A stretch of 64,000 nucleotides of DNA, taken from sequence record MK327935.1; one strand, 5' to 3'. Both the position numbers and the translations under genes were made by a program. The notes under the pieces were generated by a model that saw only the letters and a list, made by a program, of their open reading frames with translations, did no database searches and was not told where the DNA came from. The stretch comes from Escherichia phage vB_EcoM_G2494. This document shows positions 2,841 through 60,951 of this stretch, piece by piece. The first letter of the stretch is position 1; each line of letters opens with the position of its first letter.

Positions 2841-3140
2841 TTAATCTTTTTTCAGTGCATCCATTACTCGCTCTGCGATCAGTTCTCGTAAGCACTGATA
2901 ACCATGATATTTGATGGCAATATCACGCAGATCATTAACCAGTTCCCGTACTTCATGGTCTTTCAAATCGTCTCTGTATTTCGATTTAACCGTGTCTTTA
3001 GGTGGATTGCGGATAACCTGAAAACCTTGTTCTGCAATCACTGCGGCTTCTCGCTGGCGTTCATGCTGTACTGTATTTTTGATCAGGTCTACTTCCATGA
3101 ACTTTGCCATACTCATCATCATGTTATTCTTTTTGCTCAT
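2841..3140 (-). CDS. hypothetical protein
   Basis: Listed ORF 2841..3221 trimmed to in-frame ATG (MSKKNN...) preceded by GAGGA; upstream part overlaps the gene-39 terminator. Confidence 0.45.
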   Translation of the reverse strand: MSKKNNMMMSMAKFMEVDLIKNTVQHERQREAAVIAEQGFQVIRNPPKDTVKSKYRDDLKDHEVRELVNDLRDIAIKYHGYQCLRELIAERVMDALKKD

Positions 3141-3152
3141 TATTAAATCCTC

Positions 3153-3192
3153 ATAAAAGAAAAGGGAGACTCCCATTATAGAGAATCTCCCT
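3153..3192 (-). terminator. intrinsic terminator downstream of gene 39
   Basis: Inverted repeat GGGAGA...TCTCCC followed on minus strand by T-run; coordinates approximate. Confidence 0.45.
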
Positions 3193-6214: not shown

Positions 6215-6397
6215 TCAGTAACCCCGCTTAGTGAAGTGATCTATCATGGAATTAATACAATCGGCCTCGCTGATTCCAGATATACCCCATCCGTAGTTAC
6301 CCCACCTGAAATGCATGTATACACATTCGCCATGATACGATACTTTCACTTCGTCAAATTCTGGGATACTTCGCATAATCATAATAATATTCCTCAA
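6215..6397 (-). CDS. hypothetical protein
   Basis: 60-aa ORF between dda and dexA. Confidence 0.35.
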   Translation of the reverse strand: MRNIIMIMRSIPEFDEVKVSYHGECVYMHFRWGNYGWGISGISEADCINSMIDHFTKRGY

Positions 6398-7785
6398 ATA
6401 TAGTCTACACGATACCGTGCACGGGTAACACCCACATATAATAACTGCATTGCCAATTCAAAGTCAACATTATCTGTACACATGCAAGGGGTATACAGGA
6501 ACACGCGGTCTACGCTGATTCCTTGTGACTTATGAATAGTGCAAGCTGGTAATGCTTTTACATTCAAGAACATACGCTTCATCGTCCAGAAAGAATCCCA
6601 ATCCGGTTTAAAATTCGGATTCTCTTTCTTCATTTCGCGATATTGTCCGGCGACCGTATTCAGATAGATAGAGAAAATGTTCTTCTGACGTTGTTCTGTC
6701 AGAATGTTGATTTCTACTAAATCTGGTTTATCTGTAGTTATTCCGACTGCATCTAAACCGACTTTCTGATTTAGGATTTCTTTGTCTTCGTCATCATCGA
6801 CGCTTTCCACTTTCAGAGTATATCCTAAAACTGGTTGCGGATCTACCCCCGTGCAACGTAATGTAAATTCGCGCGGTATAACCTCTTTAACTCGGATCAT
6901 CTCACCATTGTTAAAAATAACATTGGGGATCTTCTTCCCGCGTTCATCTCGCAGATATTCGATCAATGGTTCCTGAGTAACCAGAATTTCATCTACAATC
7001 ACTGGTTCATCGGTGTTATAAACGCGCTTACGTACAATTTCATTGAGTTTTTCGACGCTCTTGTTAGTGTAGGCCAGAATACGGTTTTCTAGAAGGTCTT
7101 CCGGCGTTTTAACGGTTTCGAGATAATGTTTCATGAACTCTGGTAGAGTTGAGCTATGGAATACACCCTCGTTACCGCACTGCTTTTCGAATACCCATTT
7201 ACCGTTACGGACAGCGGTCGCCACATCAATTATTGGCGCATTAGATCGTTTAATCTCTGTAAGTTCTACATTCTGAAACCTTTCATCGGTGAAGAAAGGA
7301 GAGATCGACGTTGCGCCGCTCGGATCAACTGGTCGTAACTGGTACAGATCACCCACGGCAATAATAACAATTCGACCGTTGATACTCTTCATAAGAATAT
7401 CAAATAGTTTCTTATCGACCATACTCGCTTCATCAACAATGATGATCTGAACATCATCTAGCTTAGGAGTATCTTTTTGCTCAAATACTTGAGTATCTTC
7501 ATAGTTGGTCGGGTTTAGTCGCAGTAGTGCATGTAAAGTAAATGCTTGACGACCTACCGCTTTACTCAAAACTTTTTTAGCCTGGTGGGTAGGCGTTGCC
7601 AAAACCACACCAGTTACACCACGGCGGACCATTTCCTGAACAATGAATTTCATCATTGCGGTTTTACCAGTACCCGCCGCACCACGGACAGTTGTATGCT
7701 TCTTTTGTTCAATGCGTTTCATTAGAACATCAAAAGCATGTTTTTGCCCGTCTGTTAACATATCGAAAGTTAATACTCTGCTCAT
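6394..7785 (-). CDS. dda: Dda DNA helicase (SF1B)
   Basis: 463 aa; strong N-terminal similarity to T4 Dda (LTDGQKHAF, GAAGTGKT Walker A, IIVDEASM Walker B). Confidence 0.9.
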   Translation of the reverse strand: MSRVLTFDMLTDGQKHAFDVLMKRIEQKKHTTVRGAAGTGKTAMMKFIVQEMVRRGVTGVVLATPTHQAKKVLSKAVGRQAFTLHALLRLNPTNYEDTQVFEQKDTPKLDDVQIIIVDEASMVDKKLFDILMKSINGRIVIIAVGDLYQLRPVDPSGATSISPFFTDERFQNVELTEIKRSNAPIIDVATAVRNGKWVFEKQCGNEGVFHSSTLPEFMKHYLETVKTPEDLLENRILAYTNKSVEKLNEIVRKRVYNTDEPVIVDEILVTQEPLIEYLRDERGKKIPNVIFNNGEMIRVKEVIPREFTLRCTGVDPQPVLGYTLKVESVDDDEDKEILNQKVGLDAVGITTDKPDLVEINILTEQRQKNIFSIYLNTVAGQYREMKKENPNFKPDWDSFWTMKRMFLNVKALPACTIHKSQGISVDRVFLYTPCMCTDNVDFELAMQLLYVGVTRARYRVDYI

Positions 7786-8099
7786 TATCCTAAAATCCTC
7801 ACCTTGCGAACACAGATAGTATTGAGTTCTCGCCGTACCCGTTCTTTTTCATATTCAGGAATTTTATATTCGATACCATCCCGAACAATTTCAGAAGACC
7901 GGATTATGCCAAATTTTCGTTTAGGTACAACCTTGTATTTCGGTTCACCCGCCAATAGACTCTCACAATAATCTATCTGATCACACATTGACGCTAACGC
8001 AGCATCATGTGTTTCGCAAGTTAGGACGCGACCTTTCGCGTCCACTGAGTATTGAAAGAATCCGTCTTTATCACGATAACATACAGCAAATACATGCAT
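7785..8099 (-). CDS. hypothetical protein (dda.1 position)
   Basis: 104-aa ORF, start overlaps upstream stop. Confidence 0.45.
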   Translation of the reverse strand: MHVFAVCYRDKDGFFQYSVDAKGRVLTCETHDAALASMCDQIDYCESLLAGEPKYKVVPKRKFGIIRSSEIVRDGIEYKIPEYEKERVRRELNTICVRKVRILG

Positions 8100-8854
8100 T
8101 ATAAACCTACCTTCGCTTTCATCAATTCAATCCACGACGCATCAATCGGAAGCCCGTATTTCACGCGTTCTTTTTGTGCTGGCGTTAAGTTCTCATACTT
8201 AGAAAGAGATTCAATCAAAACGCTGGTATATTTTAGCACGATTTCGGTATTGTTTGCAATAGCCTTAAGTTTTTCCTCTTTCTTGTTGATTTCGCTAAGT
8301 GCTTGCTTGAGATCTGCAATTTTCTGATAACGTTCTTCCATACGGAAGAGAGTATTTTTAATCGCTCGCTCGGCTGCCTCTGCTTTCTCCGGTTCGTTGT
8401 GCTTTTTGTGGCGCTCGATTGCTAATTTCTTTTCTTCGATTGCCATTTCCTGATTTTTGATGCGATTCTCGTTAAGTTCGATCCACTCGATGTACTTCGC
8501 ACGTAGGGCAATTTCATCATCAGAAAGTTTACCTTTAGTTCCCAGTTCCTGGATCTCTTTAAGAGATTCGATAGTGTGATTGCCACGGAAAGAATTGTAT
8601 TTCAGTTTAACCGGAATTACATTGCCATCAACATATCCCAGATTGCAATCAATGCGCTCTAAGGAGAGTCCGTCATCACCTTCACCGAAAGCCTCACCTG
8701 AATAGGCACAATGAGTCTGACGGTAAATGTTACGAACAGTGACTAAGCTCATAGAGAAGTCTTTGTTGCGACGTGAAGCACCAGCCATGATAGAGTTCAG
8801 CCGGAAAACAACCAGCGCCAATTCTTCGTTAGATTTAAAAGCAAACAGTTTCAT
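8099..8854 (-). CDS. hypothetical coiled-coil protein (srd position)
   Basis: 251 aa, charged helical C-terminal half; lies where T4 carries srd but sequence identity not verified. Confidence 0.45.
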   Translation of the reverse strand: MKLFAFKSNEELALVVFRLNSIMAGASRRNKDFSMSLVTVRNIYRQTHCAYSGEAFGEGDDGLSLERIDCNLGYVDGNVIPVKLKYNSFRGNHTIESLKEIQELGTKGKLSDDEIALRAKYIEWIELNENRIKNQEMAIEEKKLAIERHKKHNEPEKAEAAERAIKNTLFRMEERYQKIADLKQALSEINKKEEKLKAIANNTEIVLKYTSVLIESLSKYENLTPAQKERVKYGLPIDASWIELMKAKVGL

Positions 8855-8879: not shown

Positions 8880-8910
8880 GTGTATTATTGTCTATCTGGT
8901 TTGTGCTGTC
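8880..8910 (-). promoter_or_regulatory. sigma70-type early promoter
   Basis: minus-strand TTGACA - 17 nt - AATAAT upstream of ORF 8099..8854; approximate. Confidence 0.4.
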
Positions 8911-8915
8911 AACAC

Positions 8916-9419
8916 TTAAATTAAAGAAAATTTGTAAATCTCTATCAGATCGCCGTTACACGCGTAAACTTCCTCGATCTCATCAAGGATCATGGTCGTT
9001 CCTATCTTGTATATGCACTCGCGCTCATCTGCCAACATAGCATACAAAGACAGTCGAGTAGTCGGATTGTCATACTCTTTAGACACCACTCGGTCAATAG
9101 CATGTTCGTAATAATTCATGCAAGGCTTGGTAGGTTTTATTGCAATAATCTTTCCTGTTGCATAAACATCGGTTGCAAAGTCCTCTGCTGTTGATTGTAG
9201 TGGCGTAAAGCTCATAGGACGCTCTACAACGAAAGAATCGCCTACAATTAAGGTATCCAGCTTACGACCTTCTCTTTTGCTCACACCGCGATACAAGGCT
9301 TCATGATGCACTAACCGCTCAGTCTTTTCAATCAATCCATTAAGGATCGACATATCGATATTTTCTTTAGAGTTCATCACCTCATCAATGATGTTAAGTT
9401 CTTCTGGTGTAAATTGCAT
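8916..9419 (-). CDS. putative ADP-ribosyltransferase (ModA/ModB-like)
   Basis: 167 aa; candidate R-S-E triad (LYRG, QST, ERE/EIEE) and position after dda/srd as for T4 modA/modB; product call tentative. Confidence 0.4.
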   Translation of the reverse strand: MQFTPEELNIIDEVMNSKENIDMSILNGLIEKTERLVHHEALYRGVSKREGRKLDTLIVGDSFVVERPMSFTPLQSTAEDFATDVYATGKIIAIKPTKPCMNYYEHAIDRVVSKEYDNPTTRLSLYAMLADERECIYKIGTTMILDEIEEVYACNGDLIEIYKFSLI

Positions 9420-9421
9420 AA

Positions 9422-9452
9422 TAAAAAAGCCTCCAATCTTTCGACGGGAGGC
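9422..9452 (-). terminator. intrinsic terminator after gene 56
   Basis: GCCTCC...GGAGGC stem followed by TTTTTT on minus strand; the 3' arm also supplies the SD of the next gene. Confidence 0.5.
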
Positions 9453-9488
9453 ATAATAAAACCATTATAGAGTAGTGTCAACTAATTT

Positions 9489-10007
9489 TTAGTAGCCGCG
9501 TTCTTGACGGGCGAAGTTTTCAGCATTTTTCAGATAGTACAGCTTGAAGATATCCTTAGCGGTTAAACCTAAGCCCAGCATTTTAATCAGCACAAAATGC
9601 CAGATATCGATCAATTCCATCGCAATTTCGGTTTTATCGTCATCTGACAGATCAGCAAATTTACGCGCTCGTGCTTCGCCGTGGTTCTTCTTCCACACTT
9701 TAGTAATTGCGCTTGCATCTTTGCCATTTGACATGCCACCCAGGGCAACATAAAGTTCTCGTGTCTCGTCGTCGATTGCGTCATCCCACAACTTCATCCA
9801 GTCAAGGATCTCCCCGCAAGTTTCCAGCTTATCAGGATGCATTACCCACTCAAATTTATCAGCTAGTGCGACCTGTAATCCTTTTTGCATATCTAACATT
9901 ACTTGCAGCGGATCTTTACCGCTAGTGATTGCCTCGGAATACGCAATACCAGCTTTAGACATAGTTTCATCATTAACAAGACCAGCACAAGAATTAAATT
10001 CACTCAT
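9489..10007 (-). CDS. 56: dCTP pyrophosphatase (dCTPase/dUTPase, MazG-like)
   Basis: Trimmed to MSEFNS...; PLQVMLDMQ and IFKLYYLKNAENFARQERGY closely match T4 gp56. Confidence 0.85.
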   Translation of the reverse strand: MSEFNSCAGLVNDETMSKAGIAYSEAITSGKDPLQVMLDMQKGLQVALADKFEWVMHPDKLETCGEILDWMKLWDDAIDDETRELYVALGGMSNGKDASAITKVWKKNHGEARARKFADLSDDDKTEIAMELIDIWHFVLIKMLGLGLTAKDIFKLYYLKNAENFARQERGY

Positions 10008-10017
10008 AATAAACCTC

Positions 10018-10581
10018 TCAAATAACATTAAACACTGCAAATTCACCGTGATACTTATACGCATAGTCATTATATACTATTGCGGCGTCTATTTCTAGGT
10101 CAAATTGTCCTATATAGACTTTATTTCCTTCATTGTCCCTTATCTGGGCGACCCATTTACCCGAACGACTATTATAATGCACTCCTTTAAAATTGCTAGT
10201 TTTAGTTTGGTTATTTCTTCTCATATTTTGGGTATTCTGTTTTTGTGTCGCCTCTCTTAAGTTTGGAGGATCGTTGTTTTCTGGATTCCCGTCAATATGG
10301 TCAATGACAGGTGGGCAATACCCATGCTCTAAGAAGAATACTATTCTATGCACAAGCTCAAAATATTGTTTTCCTTCAAAAGAAAATGAGACTTTTAGGT
10401 GTCCGGCTGTGACTTTAGATACCTTTACTATATCACCAACCTTATAAAACTGGCCTTCTTTCGTCGTTCGGCTTGCTTTGCTGTTTGTTTTATGAATCAA
10501 TATACCCCTTTCGTGTCTATATCTTCGACGTATTTCATCCTTTAATTCATCGCTCCATTCTTTGGCTTTCCTTACCCTCAC
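10018..10581 (-). CDS. free-standing HNH homing endonuclease with AP2 DNA-binding domain
   Basis: 187 aa; HNH motif (DHIDGNPENNDPPNLREAT) plus AP2-like domain (KGVHY...GKWVAQI...YIGQF); GTG start with GAGGG SD. Confidence 0.8.
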   Translation of the reverse strand: MRVRKAKEWSDELKDEIRRRYRHERGILIHKTNSKASRTTKEGQFYKVGDIVKVSKVTAGHLKVSFSFEGKQYFELVHRIVFFLEHGYCPPVIDHIDGNPENNDPPNLREATQKQNTQNMRRNNQTKTSNFKGVHYNSRSGKWVAQIRDNEGNKVYIGQFDLEIDAAIVYNDYAYKYHGEFAVFNVI

Positions 10582-10598
10582 AATACAACCCTCATTAA

Positions 10599-11627
10599 TT
10601 AAAATTTACAATATTTCATAAACCGCATTTTAGCCATCAGACCTTGTACGGTGTTCTCTTTGATATATTCCATGATCTGGTCGCGTGTAGCGCCCTCGTC
10701 CTGAATCATGGCGTTAACGTCTTTAGAATGCCACGGGCAGCGATCCCACAAAACAATCTTTTCCCCTGCATTGATAAACTTTTCCAGTCGGTGCATTGTA
10801 TCGGCAGACCGTGGTTCCGCATCAAGTACAAACACTCGCTGATCAGGGAAAGGAATTTCATCTAATCCCAAAGTACCGCCAGTAATTGCACACCCGTTAT
10901 CAATAAACAATGAATCGATCGGACCTTCTAAGAAATACACTGGTTTACTCGGATCGGCGCGTTCAAGACCATAGACCTTACTCGCTAACTCGTGAGTTTT
11001 AATCGTCATATATTTGGTCTTTCCGTAATCCTTTCTCAATGCTCGCCCCTGAATGGATTCTATCTTGTTCTCGCGGTTAAAGATAGGAATCACTAAACGC
11101 GGTTCAGGTTGTGGATTCTTGAAAGTATCAGCCTTAATGTGATTTGCTACCTTTTGCCATTCTCTCGTGAAATACAGAAGATCCCATTTATCGTGGGGAA
11201 TGCAACGATCACTGACATACTTTATTATAGGATGATTAGCCGGAAGAGTATCTAACCTCTCGCAGAAAGGCAATGTTTGCACTTTCTTAATCTCCGGCTT
11301 TTCTACCTTTTTCAATGGCTTGAACGTGGTGTTCTTGTGGTCGCCTTGTTCCTTCCGTCGTTCCATAAGCCATTCCCTGAATAGGTCCGGCTTATACTGT
11401 TTGAGAAATTCACCTAACGGCTGATTGTAGTTACAGTTGAAACAGCCGCAACGCAAACTATCCTTATAGGTATAGATACGGAATCGCGCTTGAGTATGAT
11501 TTTTCTTTGAGTCACCGCAGATCGGACAACTACAGACCAGCGTAAATGAGCTAGTATGCAACCGTTTAAAATTTCGTTCGCCGTATATGGCTTTTTCCGC
11601 TATTTCATAATCTGCGTAGTAAATCAT
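10599..11627 (-). CDS. 61: DNA primase
   Basis: 342 aa; zinc-binding CPICGDS...CFNC and collinear similarity with T4 gp61. Confidence 0.9.
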   Translation of the reverse strand: MIYYADYEIAEKAIYGERNFKRLHTSSFTLVCSCPICGDSKKNHTQARFRIYTYKDSLRCGCFNCNYNQPLGEFLKQYKPDLFREWLMERRKEQGDHKNTTFKPLKKVEKPEIKKVQTLPFCERLDTLPANHPIIKYVSDRCIPHDKWDLLYFTREWQKVANHIKADTFKNPQPEPRLVIPIFNRENKIESIQGRALRKDYGKTKYMTIKTHELASKVYGLERADPSKPVYFLEGPIDSLFIDNGCAITGGTLGLDEIPFPDQRVFVLDAEPRSADTMHRLEKFINAGEKIVLWDRCPWHSKDVNAMIQDEGATRDQIMEYIKENTVQGLMAKMRFMKYCKF

Positions 11628-17830: not shown

Positions 17831-18944
17831 CATTATGTTCAGCGCGGTTCGCTACTCCCGCGCCCGTTCTCTTGCGAACTGCTACATGTCACCATGTAGA
17901 TCAGACTATATCACATTCTCATAGAGAATCCTGCCATTTCGAATCGCTTGATTCTACTCTACTCGGTTCGTTACCCTTTCGATAGTCGTTGAACAACTGC
18001 ATCTTTAAGCTCATTTTGATCAAACGGTGTTCTCTTACAGTATCCGCTATAATTCTTAGCAAAAGGTTTCTTCTTACCAAAAATCTCTTTTCCTGAATTG
18101 TGTGCTTCAACAAGAAAATTCACCATTTCATCAAATGTGAAACTTGCAAATTTAGCATAAGTTTCATTACGTTTTGACATTATTTTACTCATAACTTCCG
18201 GTCGTTTAGACGCTGAATTTTCGCGTTTCTCGCCAGCATTAAATGATACCAACTCACCGGAAACATATCTAGGATCATCACAACTAACTCTAAACCGATT
18301 TCCTTCCTTATCCTTAACGATAACAGTATTCTTTAGCTTTTCTGCCATAGAATCAAGACCTTTTCGTATAGTGTCCTCATCAGCCCCGAAATATTTCTTT
18401 CCGCTCATATCGGTTCTGGCTTTTCCGGTCTTGTTTTCGGATATTTTCAGTCTAACTTCCTCTCGCTTGGCTGGGTTATTGTCTCCAGCGAATGCATCTT
18501 TGGTTAACGCCTTCACTTTATCGTCATAAGATCCTCTAGAGATGAAAGCATATGCTCTCTTGCATTCACCGTTATTGAATATTAAGCACAATAACCGATG
18601 CGCCTCGACGTGGTCTTCAAACTTAAGCCTAACAAGATTCCATTTATCTAACCGATATTCAGGGAACATTGACTTCGGGCATATATGATGCACCTCGGAA
18701 TATTCTTCACCCTGATACGGATTAGACACCAGTTTAATGTAGTCGTTTAATGCTTCCTCGTTATGTATTTCGTACTTTCTTAAAATGTCTTTCATCTCGC
18801 GCCTCCAATGTATATCAATATTTATATACATTATAAGACACGTTAGCTCAAAATGCAACTGCTGCTGATTGTCTCCTTAGAGATTTCCCAGCAATTAAGC
18901 AGGTTATTCGATCACTGTCACCAGTGAAAGCCCCATATCAGTTT
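17831..18944 (-). mobile_element. intervening sequence in gene 43: putative group I intron carrying an HNH homing endonuclease gene
   Basis: ~1.1 kb insertion between codons L and Y of motif A (DLTSL|YPS); 5' exon ends in T, insert ends in G; internal ORF has own late promoter; boundaries +/- a few nt. Confidence 0.6.
17971..18795 (-). CDS. HNH homing endonuclease (intron-encoded)
   Basis: Trimmed to MKDILRKYE... with GGAGG SD; His-Me finger motifs (EVHHICPKS...EDHVEAHRL); TATAAATA late-promoter motif ~20 nt upstream. Confidence 0.7.
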   Translation of the reverse strand: MKDILRKYEIHNEEALNDYIKLVSNPYQGEEYSEVHHICPKSMFPEYRLDKWNLVRLKFEDHVEAHRLLCLIFNNGECKRAYAFISRGSYDDKVKALTKDAFAGDNNPAKREEVRLKISENKTGKARTDMSGKKYFGADEDTIRKGLDSMAEKLKNTVIVKDKEGNRFRVSCDDPRYVSGELVSFNAGEKRENSASKRPEVMSKIMSKRNETYAKFASFTFDEMVNFLVEAHNSGKEIFGKKKPFAKNYSGYCKRTPFDQNELKDAVVQRLSKG

Positions 18945-60920: not shown

Positions 60921-60951
60921 CATTATGCTATAGTCGTTTATGGTTGTCAAC
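60921..60951 (-). promoter_or_regulatory. sigma70-type early promoter with conserved leader
   Basis: TTGACA - 17 nt - CATAAT then leader CACATATCGAAACGAAACAC. Confidence 0.5.

Follow-up and report, generated by a model that had tools for sequence, protein, structure and literature searches.

Introduction

Hairpins that occlude the ribosome-binding site (RBS) have been described for the T4 genes e, soc, 49, I-TevI and segB and for mobE of phage Aeh1, with a promoter inside the hairpin that relieves the occlusion (PMC3014915). In e and I-TevI this internal promoter is a late one (TATAAATA), and expression is late only (PMC3014915). A different composite element, the promoter-early stem-loop (PeSL), was described by Arbiol et al. 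(2010; PMC2839356), who found about 50 such cassettes each in phages RB49 and phi1. A PeSL combines a near-consensus sigma-70 promoter (TTGACA-N17-TATAAT) and AT-rich upstream DNA with a stem-loop, a terminator or attenuator, which is adjacent to the promoter or overlaps it and has the Shine-Dalgarno (SD) sequence and start codon of the next gene at its 3' end; in one subclass the stem-loop lies downstream of the -10 (PMC2839356). Promoter and terminator activity were measured for PeSL193/192, 206/205 and 211/210 (PMC2839356), and PeSLs were proposed to be recombination linkers for modular shuffling, tied to mosaic junctions (PMC2839356; Comeau et al., 2014, PMC4122927). Translation and SD sequestration come up in neither of the two PeSL papers. 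Here we examine an intergenic cassette in 64,000 nucleotides of Escherichia phage vB_EcoM_G2494 (MK327935.1), a stretch referred to below as the window, in which a sigma-70-type promoter, a terminator hairpin and the SD of a Mod-like ADP-ribosyltransferase gene (mod) overlap downstream of gene 56 (gp56).

Parts of this cassette have been predicted before. For RB49, Nolan et al. (2006) listed an early promoter, Pe:9496 (9446-9496, minus strand), and a TransTerm terminator at 9430-9453 (confidence 100, labeled 'modB<--56'), and these coordinates equal those of the window to within one base. GenBank records of relatives also carry the elements: GEC-3S has an annotated promoter here, and the Makalu records have a terminator with a ribosome_binding_site inside it. 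Our analysis suggests that the cassette probably insulates mod expression from upstream transcription, and that the translational part of this arrangement extends to the first mod gene of T-even phages.

Results

Promoter, predicted terminator and SD share the gap between gp56 and mod

On re-reading of the coordinates, the cassette takes up all 69 nt from the gp56 TAA to the mod ATG, on the minus strand like all genes relevant to it. The promoter, hairpin, T-run and SD that a first-pass annotation of the letters had pointed out were all present. The gp56 stop codon (9491-9489) is followed by AAATTAG, within an A/T-rich, UP-like stretch that was read directly, TAAAAATTAG (9482-9491); the sister cassettes described below have the same aaaaAGTTG context. 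Next come the -35 hexamer TTGACA (9476-9481), a 17-nt spacer (9459-9475) that holds a non-conserved TATAAT, and the -10 hexamer TATTAT (9453-9458), the two hexamers being annotated as minus_35_signal and minus_10_signal in GEC-3S. The 5' arm of the hairpin, GCCUCC (9447-9452; from the fold and a repeat finder), is both an anti-SD mimic and the promoter discriminator (-7 to -2). The top of the folded hairpin (9435-9446) consists of a C/U mismatch, a 3-bp inner stem (GUC/GAU, one G-U pair) and a GAAA tetraloop, which in letters is C at 9446, GTC-GAAA-GAT at 9445-9436 and T at 9435. The 3' arm, GGAGGC (9429-9434; read directly, and returned by the fold and the repeat finder), contains the SD GGAGG (9434-9430), and T6 (9428-9423) plus ATT complete the gap (9420-9428) as terminator tail and SD-to-AUG spacer.

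There is no second purine-rich SD between the stem and the mod ATG, which bears out the earlier statement that the only SD of the gene is the 3' arm of the terminator. The distance from stem to ATG had been given as 8 nt; it is 9 nt in the window, and 8 nt only in relatives with T5. In these 69 nt of a T4-type phage nearly every base thus has two roles, with stop codon and UP-like stretch, discriminator and anti-SD arm, SD and terminator arm, and U-tract and SD-AUG spacer each overlapping.

A start past the 5' arm is predicted from promoter geometry and sister cassettes

The TTGACA-17-TATTAT promoter (9481-9453), whose presence just upstream had been noted earlier, matches the consensus at 11/12 positions, ties for the best match within the 7 kb scanned, is preceded by AT-rich AAAAATTAG, and has a -10 that adjoins the 5' arm. 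Across the whole window, 75 of the 82 sites with at least 10/12 matches lie on the coding strand. Because the -10 ends at 9453 and the arm occupies 9452-9447, a start 6-9 nt past the -10 would omit the 5' arm from the transcript. Sigma-70 geometry together with the sister-cassette alignment predicted C9446 (7 nt past the -10) or G9445 (8 nt past it) as the start (9445-9446).

About 20 sister cassettes of the form aaaaAGTTG-TTGACA-N17-(c/t)ATAAT-acaccc-ATCGAAAC...AGGAGAATCAAAATG occur in the window (for example at 60950, 58960, 57988, 52625, 46738 and 2833, minus strand). These share the hexamers, a C-rich discriminator, the initial transcribed sequence ATCGAAAC(GAAAC) and a near-identical SD context, AGGAGAATCAAAATG; the stems of most of them (GGGGG...CCCCC) straddle the -10 and have no U-tract. 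The sister consensus ...acaccc|ATCGAAAC aligns with GTCGAAAG of the gp56-mod cassette, and all have a common (A/G)TCGAAA start region. Since the cassette is homologous to the sisters here, +1 would fall at G9445, 8 nt past the -10, and we infer that transcription starts at about this base. A start inside the hairpin had been proposed in the first-pass annotation; geometry and the sister cassettes refine this to a predicted start directly 3' of the outer 5' arm.

The TATAAT within the spacer (9469-9464) was considered as the real -10 and rejected. It lies 6 nt after TTGACA and would have CTAAAA as its -35; JSE and FL20 have lost it but keep TTGACA-17-TATTAT; and RNA begun there would be terminated immediately. 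A late promoter upstream, giving an early/late switch like that of T4 gene e, was also rejected: the late motif TATAAATA has only three sites in the 64 kb, and the stretch from 9.4 to 13 kb is free of it.

The hairpin has terminator features and is predicted to occlude the SD

The repeat finder returned GCCTCC/GGAGGC as a 6-nt perfect inverted repeat, and RNAfold gave the hairpin (9452-9429) as both the minimum free energy structure and the centroid (-13.8 kcal/mol alone). In a 91-nt context its z-score was -2.45, with 5/200 shuffles equally stable. Six G-C pairs and three inner pairs are followed by U6. A scan for hairpins with a T-run found 11 coding-strand sites in the window, the cassette among them, against 0-4 (mean 1.6) in Markov shuffles. 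The GC stem with U6, and the TransTerm confidence of 100 at the RB49 site, support in silico the terminator proposed earlier. The hairpin begins 36 nt past the gp56 stop codon, and because of this separation ribosomes terminating at gp56 should not reach or melt it. A scan of 9000-10000 against Rfam gave two chance-level matches only (E about 0.85) and no known RNA family.

Opening of GGAGG was calculated to cost 10.5-11.2 kcal/mol in read-through RNA from gp56, in which the predicted probability of the SD being unpaired is ~0, versus 3.0 kcal/mol in RNA from 9446 and 1.9 kcal/mol in RNA from 9445. The promoter dependence of expression that the first-pass annotation had anticipated is thus supported in silico, and the same logic applies in the mod leaders of T-even phages (see below). 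Of 115 gene starts called heuristically (median 1.95 kcal/mol), none had a real cost above that of mod in read-through RNA. One gene (2841-3176) had scored above mod for SD sequestration and was discarded, as its ATG (3176) had been mis-called inside a TATAATG -10 box. The next cassette, in front of the srd-like gene (TTGACA-17-AATAAT, 8884-8912, minus strand), has no hairpin and served as an internal control; opening its SD costs 2.0 vs 2.3 kcal/mol.

No other predicted terminator in the window has an SD as its 3' arm. The other ten coding-strand terminators keep the SD apart, and in most of them the order is terminator, then promoter, with the SD further downstream.

Conservation and mosaicism within Krischvirus

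Over the 1.3 kb around the cassette, identity is 99.5% with Escherichia phage phiS and 97-99% with RB49-type phages, and by this the window is Krischvirus (RB49-like), a T4-type coliphage of the family Straboviridae. The cassette is present in 58/58 Krischvirus records. Position-by-position comparison was made with 13 sampled Krischvirus relatives, metagenomic variants included. In these the -35, both arms and the GAAA loop are unchanged. The sole hexamer change is TATTGT for the TATTAT -10 (equivalent of 9454) in one metagenomic variant (L021, an IMG/VR contig), and the only substitution in the hairpin affects the unpaired U9435 (U to C in the metagenomic variant L022). T-run length ranges from 5 to 7. 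The 17-nt spacer has many variable positions and a constant length, and its internal TATAAT is gone in JSE and FL20. In JSE and G37-3 everything upstream of TTGACA is replaced, and TTGACA-17-TATTAT is kept. Because the spacer varies and the upstream DNA can be replaced, the constraint on TTGACA-17-TATTAT, the arms and the loop supports a regulatory reading.

The replaced DNA in JSE (locus L003, 1524-2444) and G37-3 (L024, 515-1444) is an antisense HNH homing-endonuclease gene of ~920 bp between gp56 and the cassette; it overlaps the 3' end of gp56, and its junction lies directly 5' of TTGACA (window 9482). Two further relatives show exchange of single genes. In L022 (801-1304) the mod open reading frame (ORF) is 70.8% identical to that of the window and the flanking intergenic cassettes are 93-97% identical, and in L004 (PTE-Eco09 group, 1194-1712) gp56 is 71.8%, the cassette 100% and mod 98.8% identical. 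This mosaicism looks like cassette-by-cassette gene replacement. Such a mosaic boundary fits the recombination-linker role of PeSLs and is compatible with a regulatory one.

A leader hairpin precedes the first mod gene in T-even phages

A leader hairpin was found upstream of the first mod gene in at least ten T-even genera (T4, AF158101.6, 1631-1670, minus strand, locus L007; also L008-L019 and L027-L051). The phages were T4 (modB; Tequatrovirus), RB69 (Mosigvirus), JS10 and ABTNLS3 (Dhakavirus), myPSH1140 (Karamvirus), Melville (Gelderlandvirus), KP185 (Jiaodavirus), Merlin (Moonvirus), PM2 (Mosugukvirus), IT22 (Roskildevirus), F48 (Marfavirus) and phage 212, whose genus is not stated in its record. 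IMG/VR supplied further variants of the leader; a search of it with a 5-sequence Mod alignment gave 18 loci, and single-protein scans with Mod gave few matches, to close relatives.

Beyond GGAGGC(U) these leaders have no sequence likeness to the Krischvirus cassette. In nearly all of them an early promoter of GTTTAC-17-TATGAT type is followed directly by an anti-SD strand, with pairing between the -10 hexamer (TATGAT) and AUCAUG and between the discriminator and GGAGG. This gives a hairpin of 14-18 bp (-14 to -26 kcal/mol, z = -2.5 to -6.7) in which both SD and AUG are buried. In the T4 modB leader it is formed by UAUGAUAGCUUCUG...CGGAGGCUAUCAUG (-18 kcal/mol, z = -5.8). A consistent coordinate offset of three promoters makes it probable that the modB promoter is the one named Pe12.8 among the early promoters of T4.

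In 11/13 lineages the predicted cost of opening the SD was 8-16 kcal/mol in read-through RNA vs 1-4 kcal/mol in RNA from the predicted start. The exceptions were KP185, in which the AUG is buried instead of the SD, and IT22, with a cost of 7.5 kcal/mol from a start for which the script had picked the wrong promoter; by eye, its 5' arm lies within the spacer of a GTGTAC-17-TAGTAT promoter. Thirteen controls from the same phages (srd and the second mod gene) gave 1.5-5 kcal/mol, alike for both RNAs.

The SD-AUG segment co-varies with its partner strand (GAUAGC/GCUAUC, AUGACC/GGUCAU, AUGGCC/GGCCAU, GAUGAC/GUCAUC, AUAGUC/GACUAU and UAGUAUCUC/GAGAUACUA), and RNAalifold reported compensatory changes in 7/11 pairs of the hairpin. 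When the T4 structure was laid on a 16-sequence MAFFT alignment, 86.4% of cells were paired (39-57% with the partners slid), double-sided changes fell on 6 pairs (0-3 when slid), and the covariation score was reached by 0/500 shuffles; the structure was taken from one of the aligned sequences, and the sequences are related. The alignment mis-registers F48 and L051, which makes these counts conservative. Frequent U-G pairs indicate a structure of the sense-strand RNA rather than a DNA palindrome, and because there is no U-tract the T-even hairpin is not explicable as a terminator. On this comparison, SD occlusion by a strand inside mod's own early promoter would be the conserved feature, and the U-tract with its termination a Krischvirus addition. 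A search of the accessible literature, which excludes older subscription papers, turned up no account of the mod leader hairpin, though one may exist.

In Citrobacter phage Ursula (L017, 967) the annotated Mod start is an ATG inside the TATGAT -10 box, and translation probably begins ~30 nt further on, as in Merlin. TATAATG and TATGAT boxes mislead gene callers, including the heuristic used here (at 3176).

Gene neighborhood and identity of Mod

The genes around the cassette run, on the minus strand, from the gp61 primase gene (10599-11627) through an HNH-AP2 endonuclease gene (10018-10581; HNH_3 and AP2 domains), which lies between gp61 and gp56, to the gp56 dCTPase/dUTPase gene (9489-10007), whose transcripts meet the hairpin. 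The gp56 assignment comes from a Pfam dUTPase_2 match and the dCTPase annotation in relatives. In several RB49-type genomes the match begins only at the gp56 start (query position 100); these apparently lack the HNH-AP2 gene, which is probably a mobile insertion. Downstream of the cassette lie mod (8916-9419), a Srd-like gene (8099-8854), a Y01A-family ORF (7785-8099) and dda (6394-7785).

The 167-aa ORF at 8916-9419 matches PHROG 832, 'RNA polymerase ADP-ribosylase' (E = 9e-21), and by tblastn it matches T4 modB and RB69 modA (29-33% identity); Pfam and NCBIfam searches with it gave no match. In a 12-sequence alignment Krischvirus Mod keeps the R-S-ExE catalytic residues (R44, S70, E132, E134). 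On these matches and residues we regard the ORF as a genuine Mod-type ADP-ribosyltransferase. The alignment with other Mod proteins runs from residue 2-3, so that the start codon should be the ATG at 9419. An internal start at Met15, after GAGGTG, was rejected for its poor spacing and because Mod homologs align from residue 2-3. Krischvirus Mod begins directly at the conserved (K/Q)FTxxE motif and has no variable N-terminal extension (~20-65 residues as aligned) of the kind found in most aligned T-even Mods; that of IT22 is likewise without it.

Two hairpins with late promoters elsewhere in the window

Two of the three TATAAATA sites in the window lie in structures of the RBS-occluding kind. 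Upstream of the gene at 17971-18795, a hairpin at 18798-18842 (minus strand; -18.6 kcal/mol, z = -5.2) buries the SD GGAGG (18806-18802) of an HNH homing-endonuclease gene (PHROG 12434) and has a TATAAATA motif inside it (18826-18819), as in the I-TevI/mobE-type arrangement. Upstream of the gene at 48636-48938, a structure at 48948-48987 (minus strand; -24.8 kcal/mol, z = -5.8) pairs the G-rich SD region of a rI-like lysis-inhibition gene (PHROG 1246). A late promoter, TATAAATA (48979-48972), overlaps its 5' arm and loop in the manner of T4 gene e, and a second small hairpin covers the AUG.

Discussion

Our folding and comparative results suggest that this three-in-one cassette probably insulates mod expression from upstream transcription. 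Polymerase coming from the primase/HNH/gp56 unit would transcribe both arms, and the hairpin with U6 would terminate most transcripts just before the mod AUG. In RNA that reads through, the only SD (GGAGG) would be paired with the anti-SD-like GCCUCC, and ribosome loading would be blocked. The cassette's own sigma-70 early promoter would start at ~G9445, past the 5' arm, and so yield RNA without the hairpin, not subject to termination and with a free SD, such that Mod would be made only from this promoter. The sequences themselves show the anatomy, the predicted fold energies, the pattern of conservation and the analogous T-even architecture; from these we infer where transcription starts, that it terminates, how translation is affected and what physiological reason there is for the cassette. 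As to that reason, both ModA and ModB are early proteins in T4, ModA being highly toxic to E. coli and ModB lethal when over-expressed; by analogy, this toxicity is a plausible reason for double insulation.

Several points weigh against insulation as the function of the cassette. The upstream unit is apparently early too (there is no TATAAATA at 9.4-13 kb), so there is no evident temporal switch of the T4 gene e kind. Near-complete termination would leave SD occlusion little role, weak termination in vivo would make the insulation leaky, and the U-rich leader could permit some S1-assisted initiation even with the hairpin formed. The hairpin does not vary within Krischvirus and therefore offers no covariation of its own, and its conservation could partly reflect recombination-driven homogenization of PeSLs and not regulatory selection.

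Among other explanations, the cassette might be a plain PeSL junction of terminator and promoter, in which a G-rich SD was recruited as a stem arm in an AT-rich genome, termination does all the work and sequestration is without consequence. PeSLs have been described purely as promoter/terminator composites, with translation unmentioned (PMC2839356, PMC4122927); the ten other terminators and the ~20 sister cassettes of the window keep the SD separate, so its overlap is no general rule, and the upstream unit is probably early as well. We nevertheless consider this explanation unlikely, given that an anti-SD in the discriminator and an SD in the 3' arm recur before mod in many T-even genera, with covariation and without a U-tract. 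A function at the DNA level, as a linker for homologous recombination in PeSL shuffling and conserved by repeated exchange, would accord with the role put forward in the PeSL papers (PMC2839356, PMC4122927) and with the clustering here of mosaic junctions (L022, L004, and the HNH insertion directly 5' of TTGACA in JSE and G37-3). As the main cause of conservation it seems improbable, as substitutions are position-specific, with a free spacer and fixed hexamers and arms, as expected for a promoter and an RNA structure, and as the G-U pair of the inner stem works in sense-strand RNA only; such a linker would in any case be compatible with regulation and does not exclude it.

It is also known that stable 3' hairpins protect against exonucleases and that T4 RegB cuts GGAG in early SDs. 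The hairpin might accordingly protect the 3' end of gp56 mRNA, or shield GGAG from a RegB-type endonuclease, the SD here being GGAGG. Beyond this general knowledge nothing in the data is specific to processing, no Rfam family was matched, and an intrinsic terminator leaves a protective 3' hairpin anyway; we regard a role in RNA stability or processing as very improbable.

Returning to insulation from upstream transcription, a wider form of it can be put forward tentatively, as a possibility that falls short of our expectation for the cassette itself. In Straboviridae (the T-even genera and Krischvirus) the first mod gene may carry a conserved gate that allows translation from its own promoter only, with the anti-SD in the -10/discriminator, making synthesis of the toxic enzyme a self-limiting immediate-early pulse. 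Alt and ModA ADP-ribosylate the alpha subunit of RNA polymerase, which is thought to reduce early-promoter use. If such a gate exists, read-through or later transcription could not prolong the Mod pulse, and in Krischvirus the U-tract would have turned the same hairpin into a terminator. Transcriptional and translational insulation to one promoter would then be a testable reason why Mod ADP-ribosyltransferases appear as early proteins only, and its conservation across genera makes it a candidate general rule for mod genes. For annotation and engineering there is a warning, in that replacing or moving the cassette promoter is predicted to silence mod translation.

By its layout the window element is a PeSL of the type with the stem-loop just downstream of the -10, a class known since 2010. 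It has an 11/12 sigma-70-like promoter with AT-rich DNA upstream, a hairpin that starts at the base after the -10, an intergenic position, a family of repeated copies, and insertion and replacement junctions. Like the PeSLs of RB49 and phi1 it belongs to the same host group and has the same promoter type, an adjacent stem-loop and the SD and start codon at the 3' end. Typical PeSLs of the window, however, have G(n)...C(n) stems over the -10 and a separate AGGAGAATCAAA SD, whereas in the mod cassette the 3' arm is the SD and is followed by U6. The cassette would thereby add a translational side to PeSLs, until now discussed as promoter/terminator and recombination elements.

With canonical intrinsic terminators the cassette shares a GC-rich stem, a GNRA-type tetraloop at the top and U6 directly after it. 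It differs in that the hairpin lies downstream of a promoter's -10 and not upstream of the promoter, and for this reason transcripts from the cassette's own promoter should escape the terminator. The T-even mod leaders share with it the orthologous gene, an anti-SD 5' arm within the promoter, a GGAGG(C/U) 3' arm and the same predicted effect on the SD, but they have longer stems (14-18 bp), a -10 paired with AUCAUG, a buried start codon and no U-tract. For RB49, predictions of the cassette's promoter and terminator date from 2006, and what is new is the comparison of mod across genera.

The closest functional likeness is to the e/soc/49/I-TevI type of T4. There, as predicted here, long transcripts bury the SD and/or AUG, while RNA from the proximal promoter begins inside or past the 5' strand and is alone translated. 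In the cassette the SD is paired in upstream transcripts in silico, and geometry and homology place the start past the 5' strand. None of the window's three TATAAATA sites lies here, however. In contrast to e and I-TevI the promoter is of the early sigma-70 type and the hairpin is also a predicted intrinsic terminator, which would make for insulation and not for an early/late switch. By analogy the cassette would act like the T4 e-type systems without belonging to the late switches. As far as the literature could be searched, no description of an early-promoter version of the e/soc switch was found. The cassette is a new instance of known T4-family designs and not a new mechanism: an early-promoter version of the occluding hairpin, merged with a terminator.

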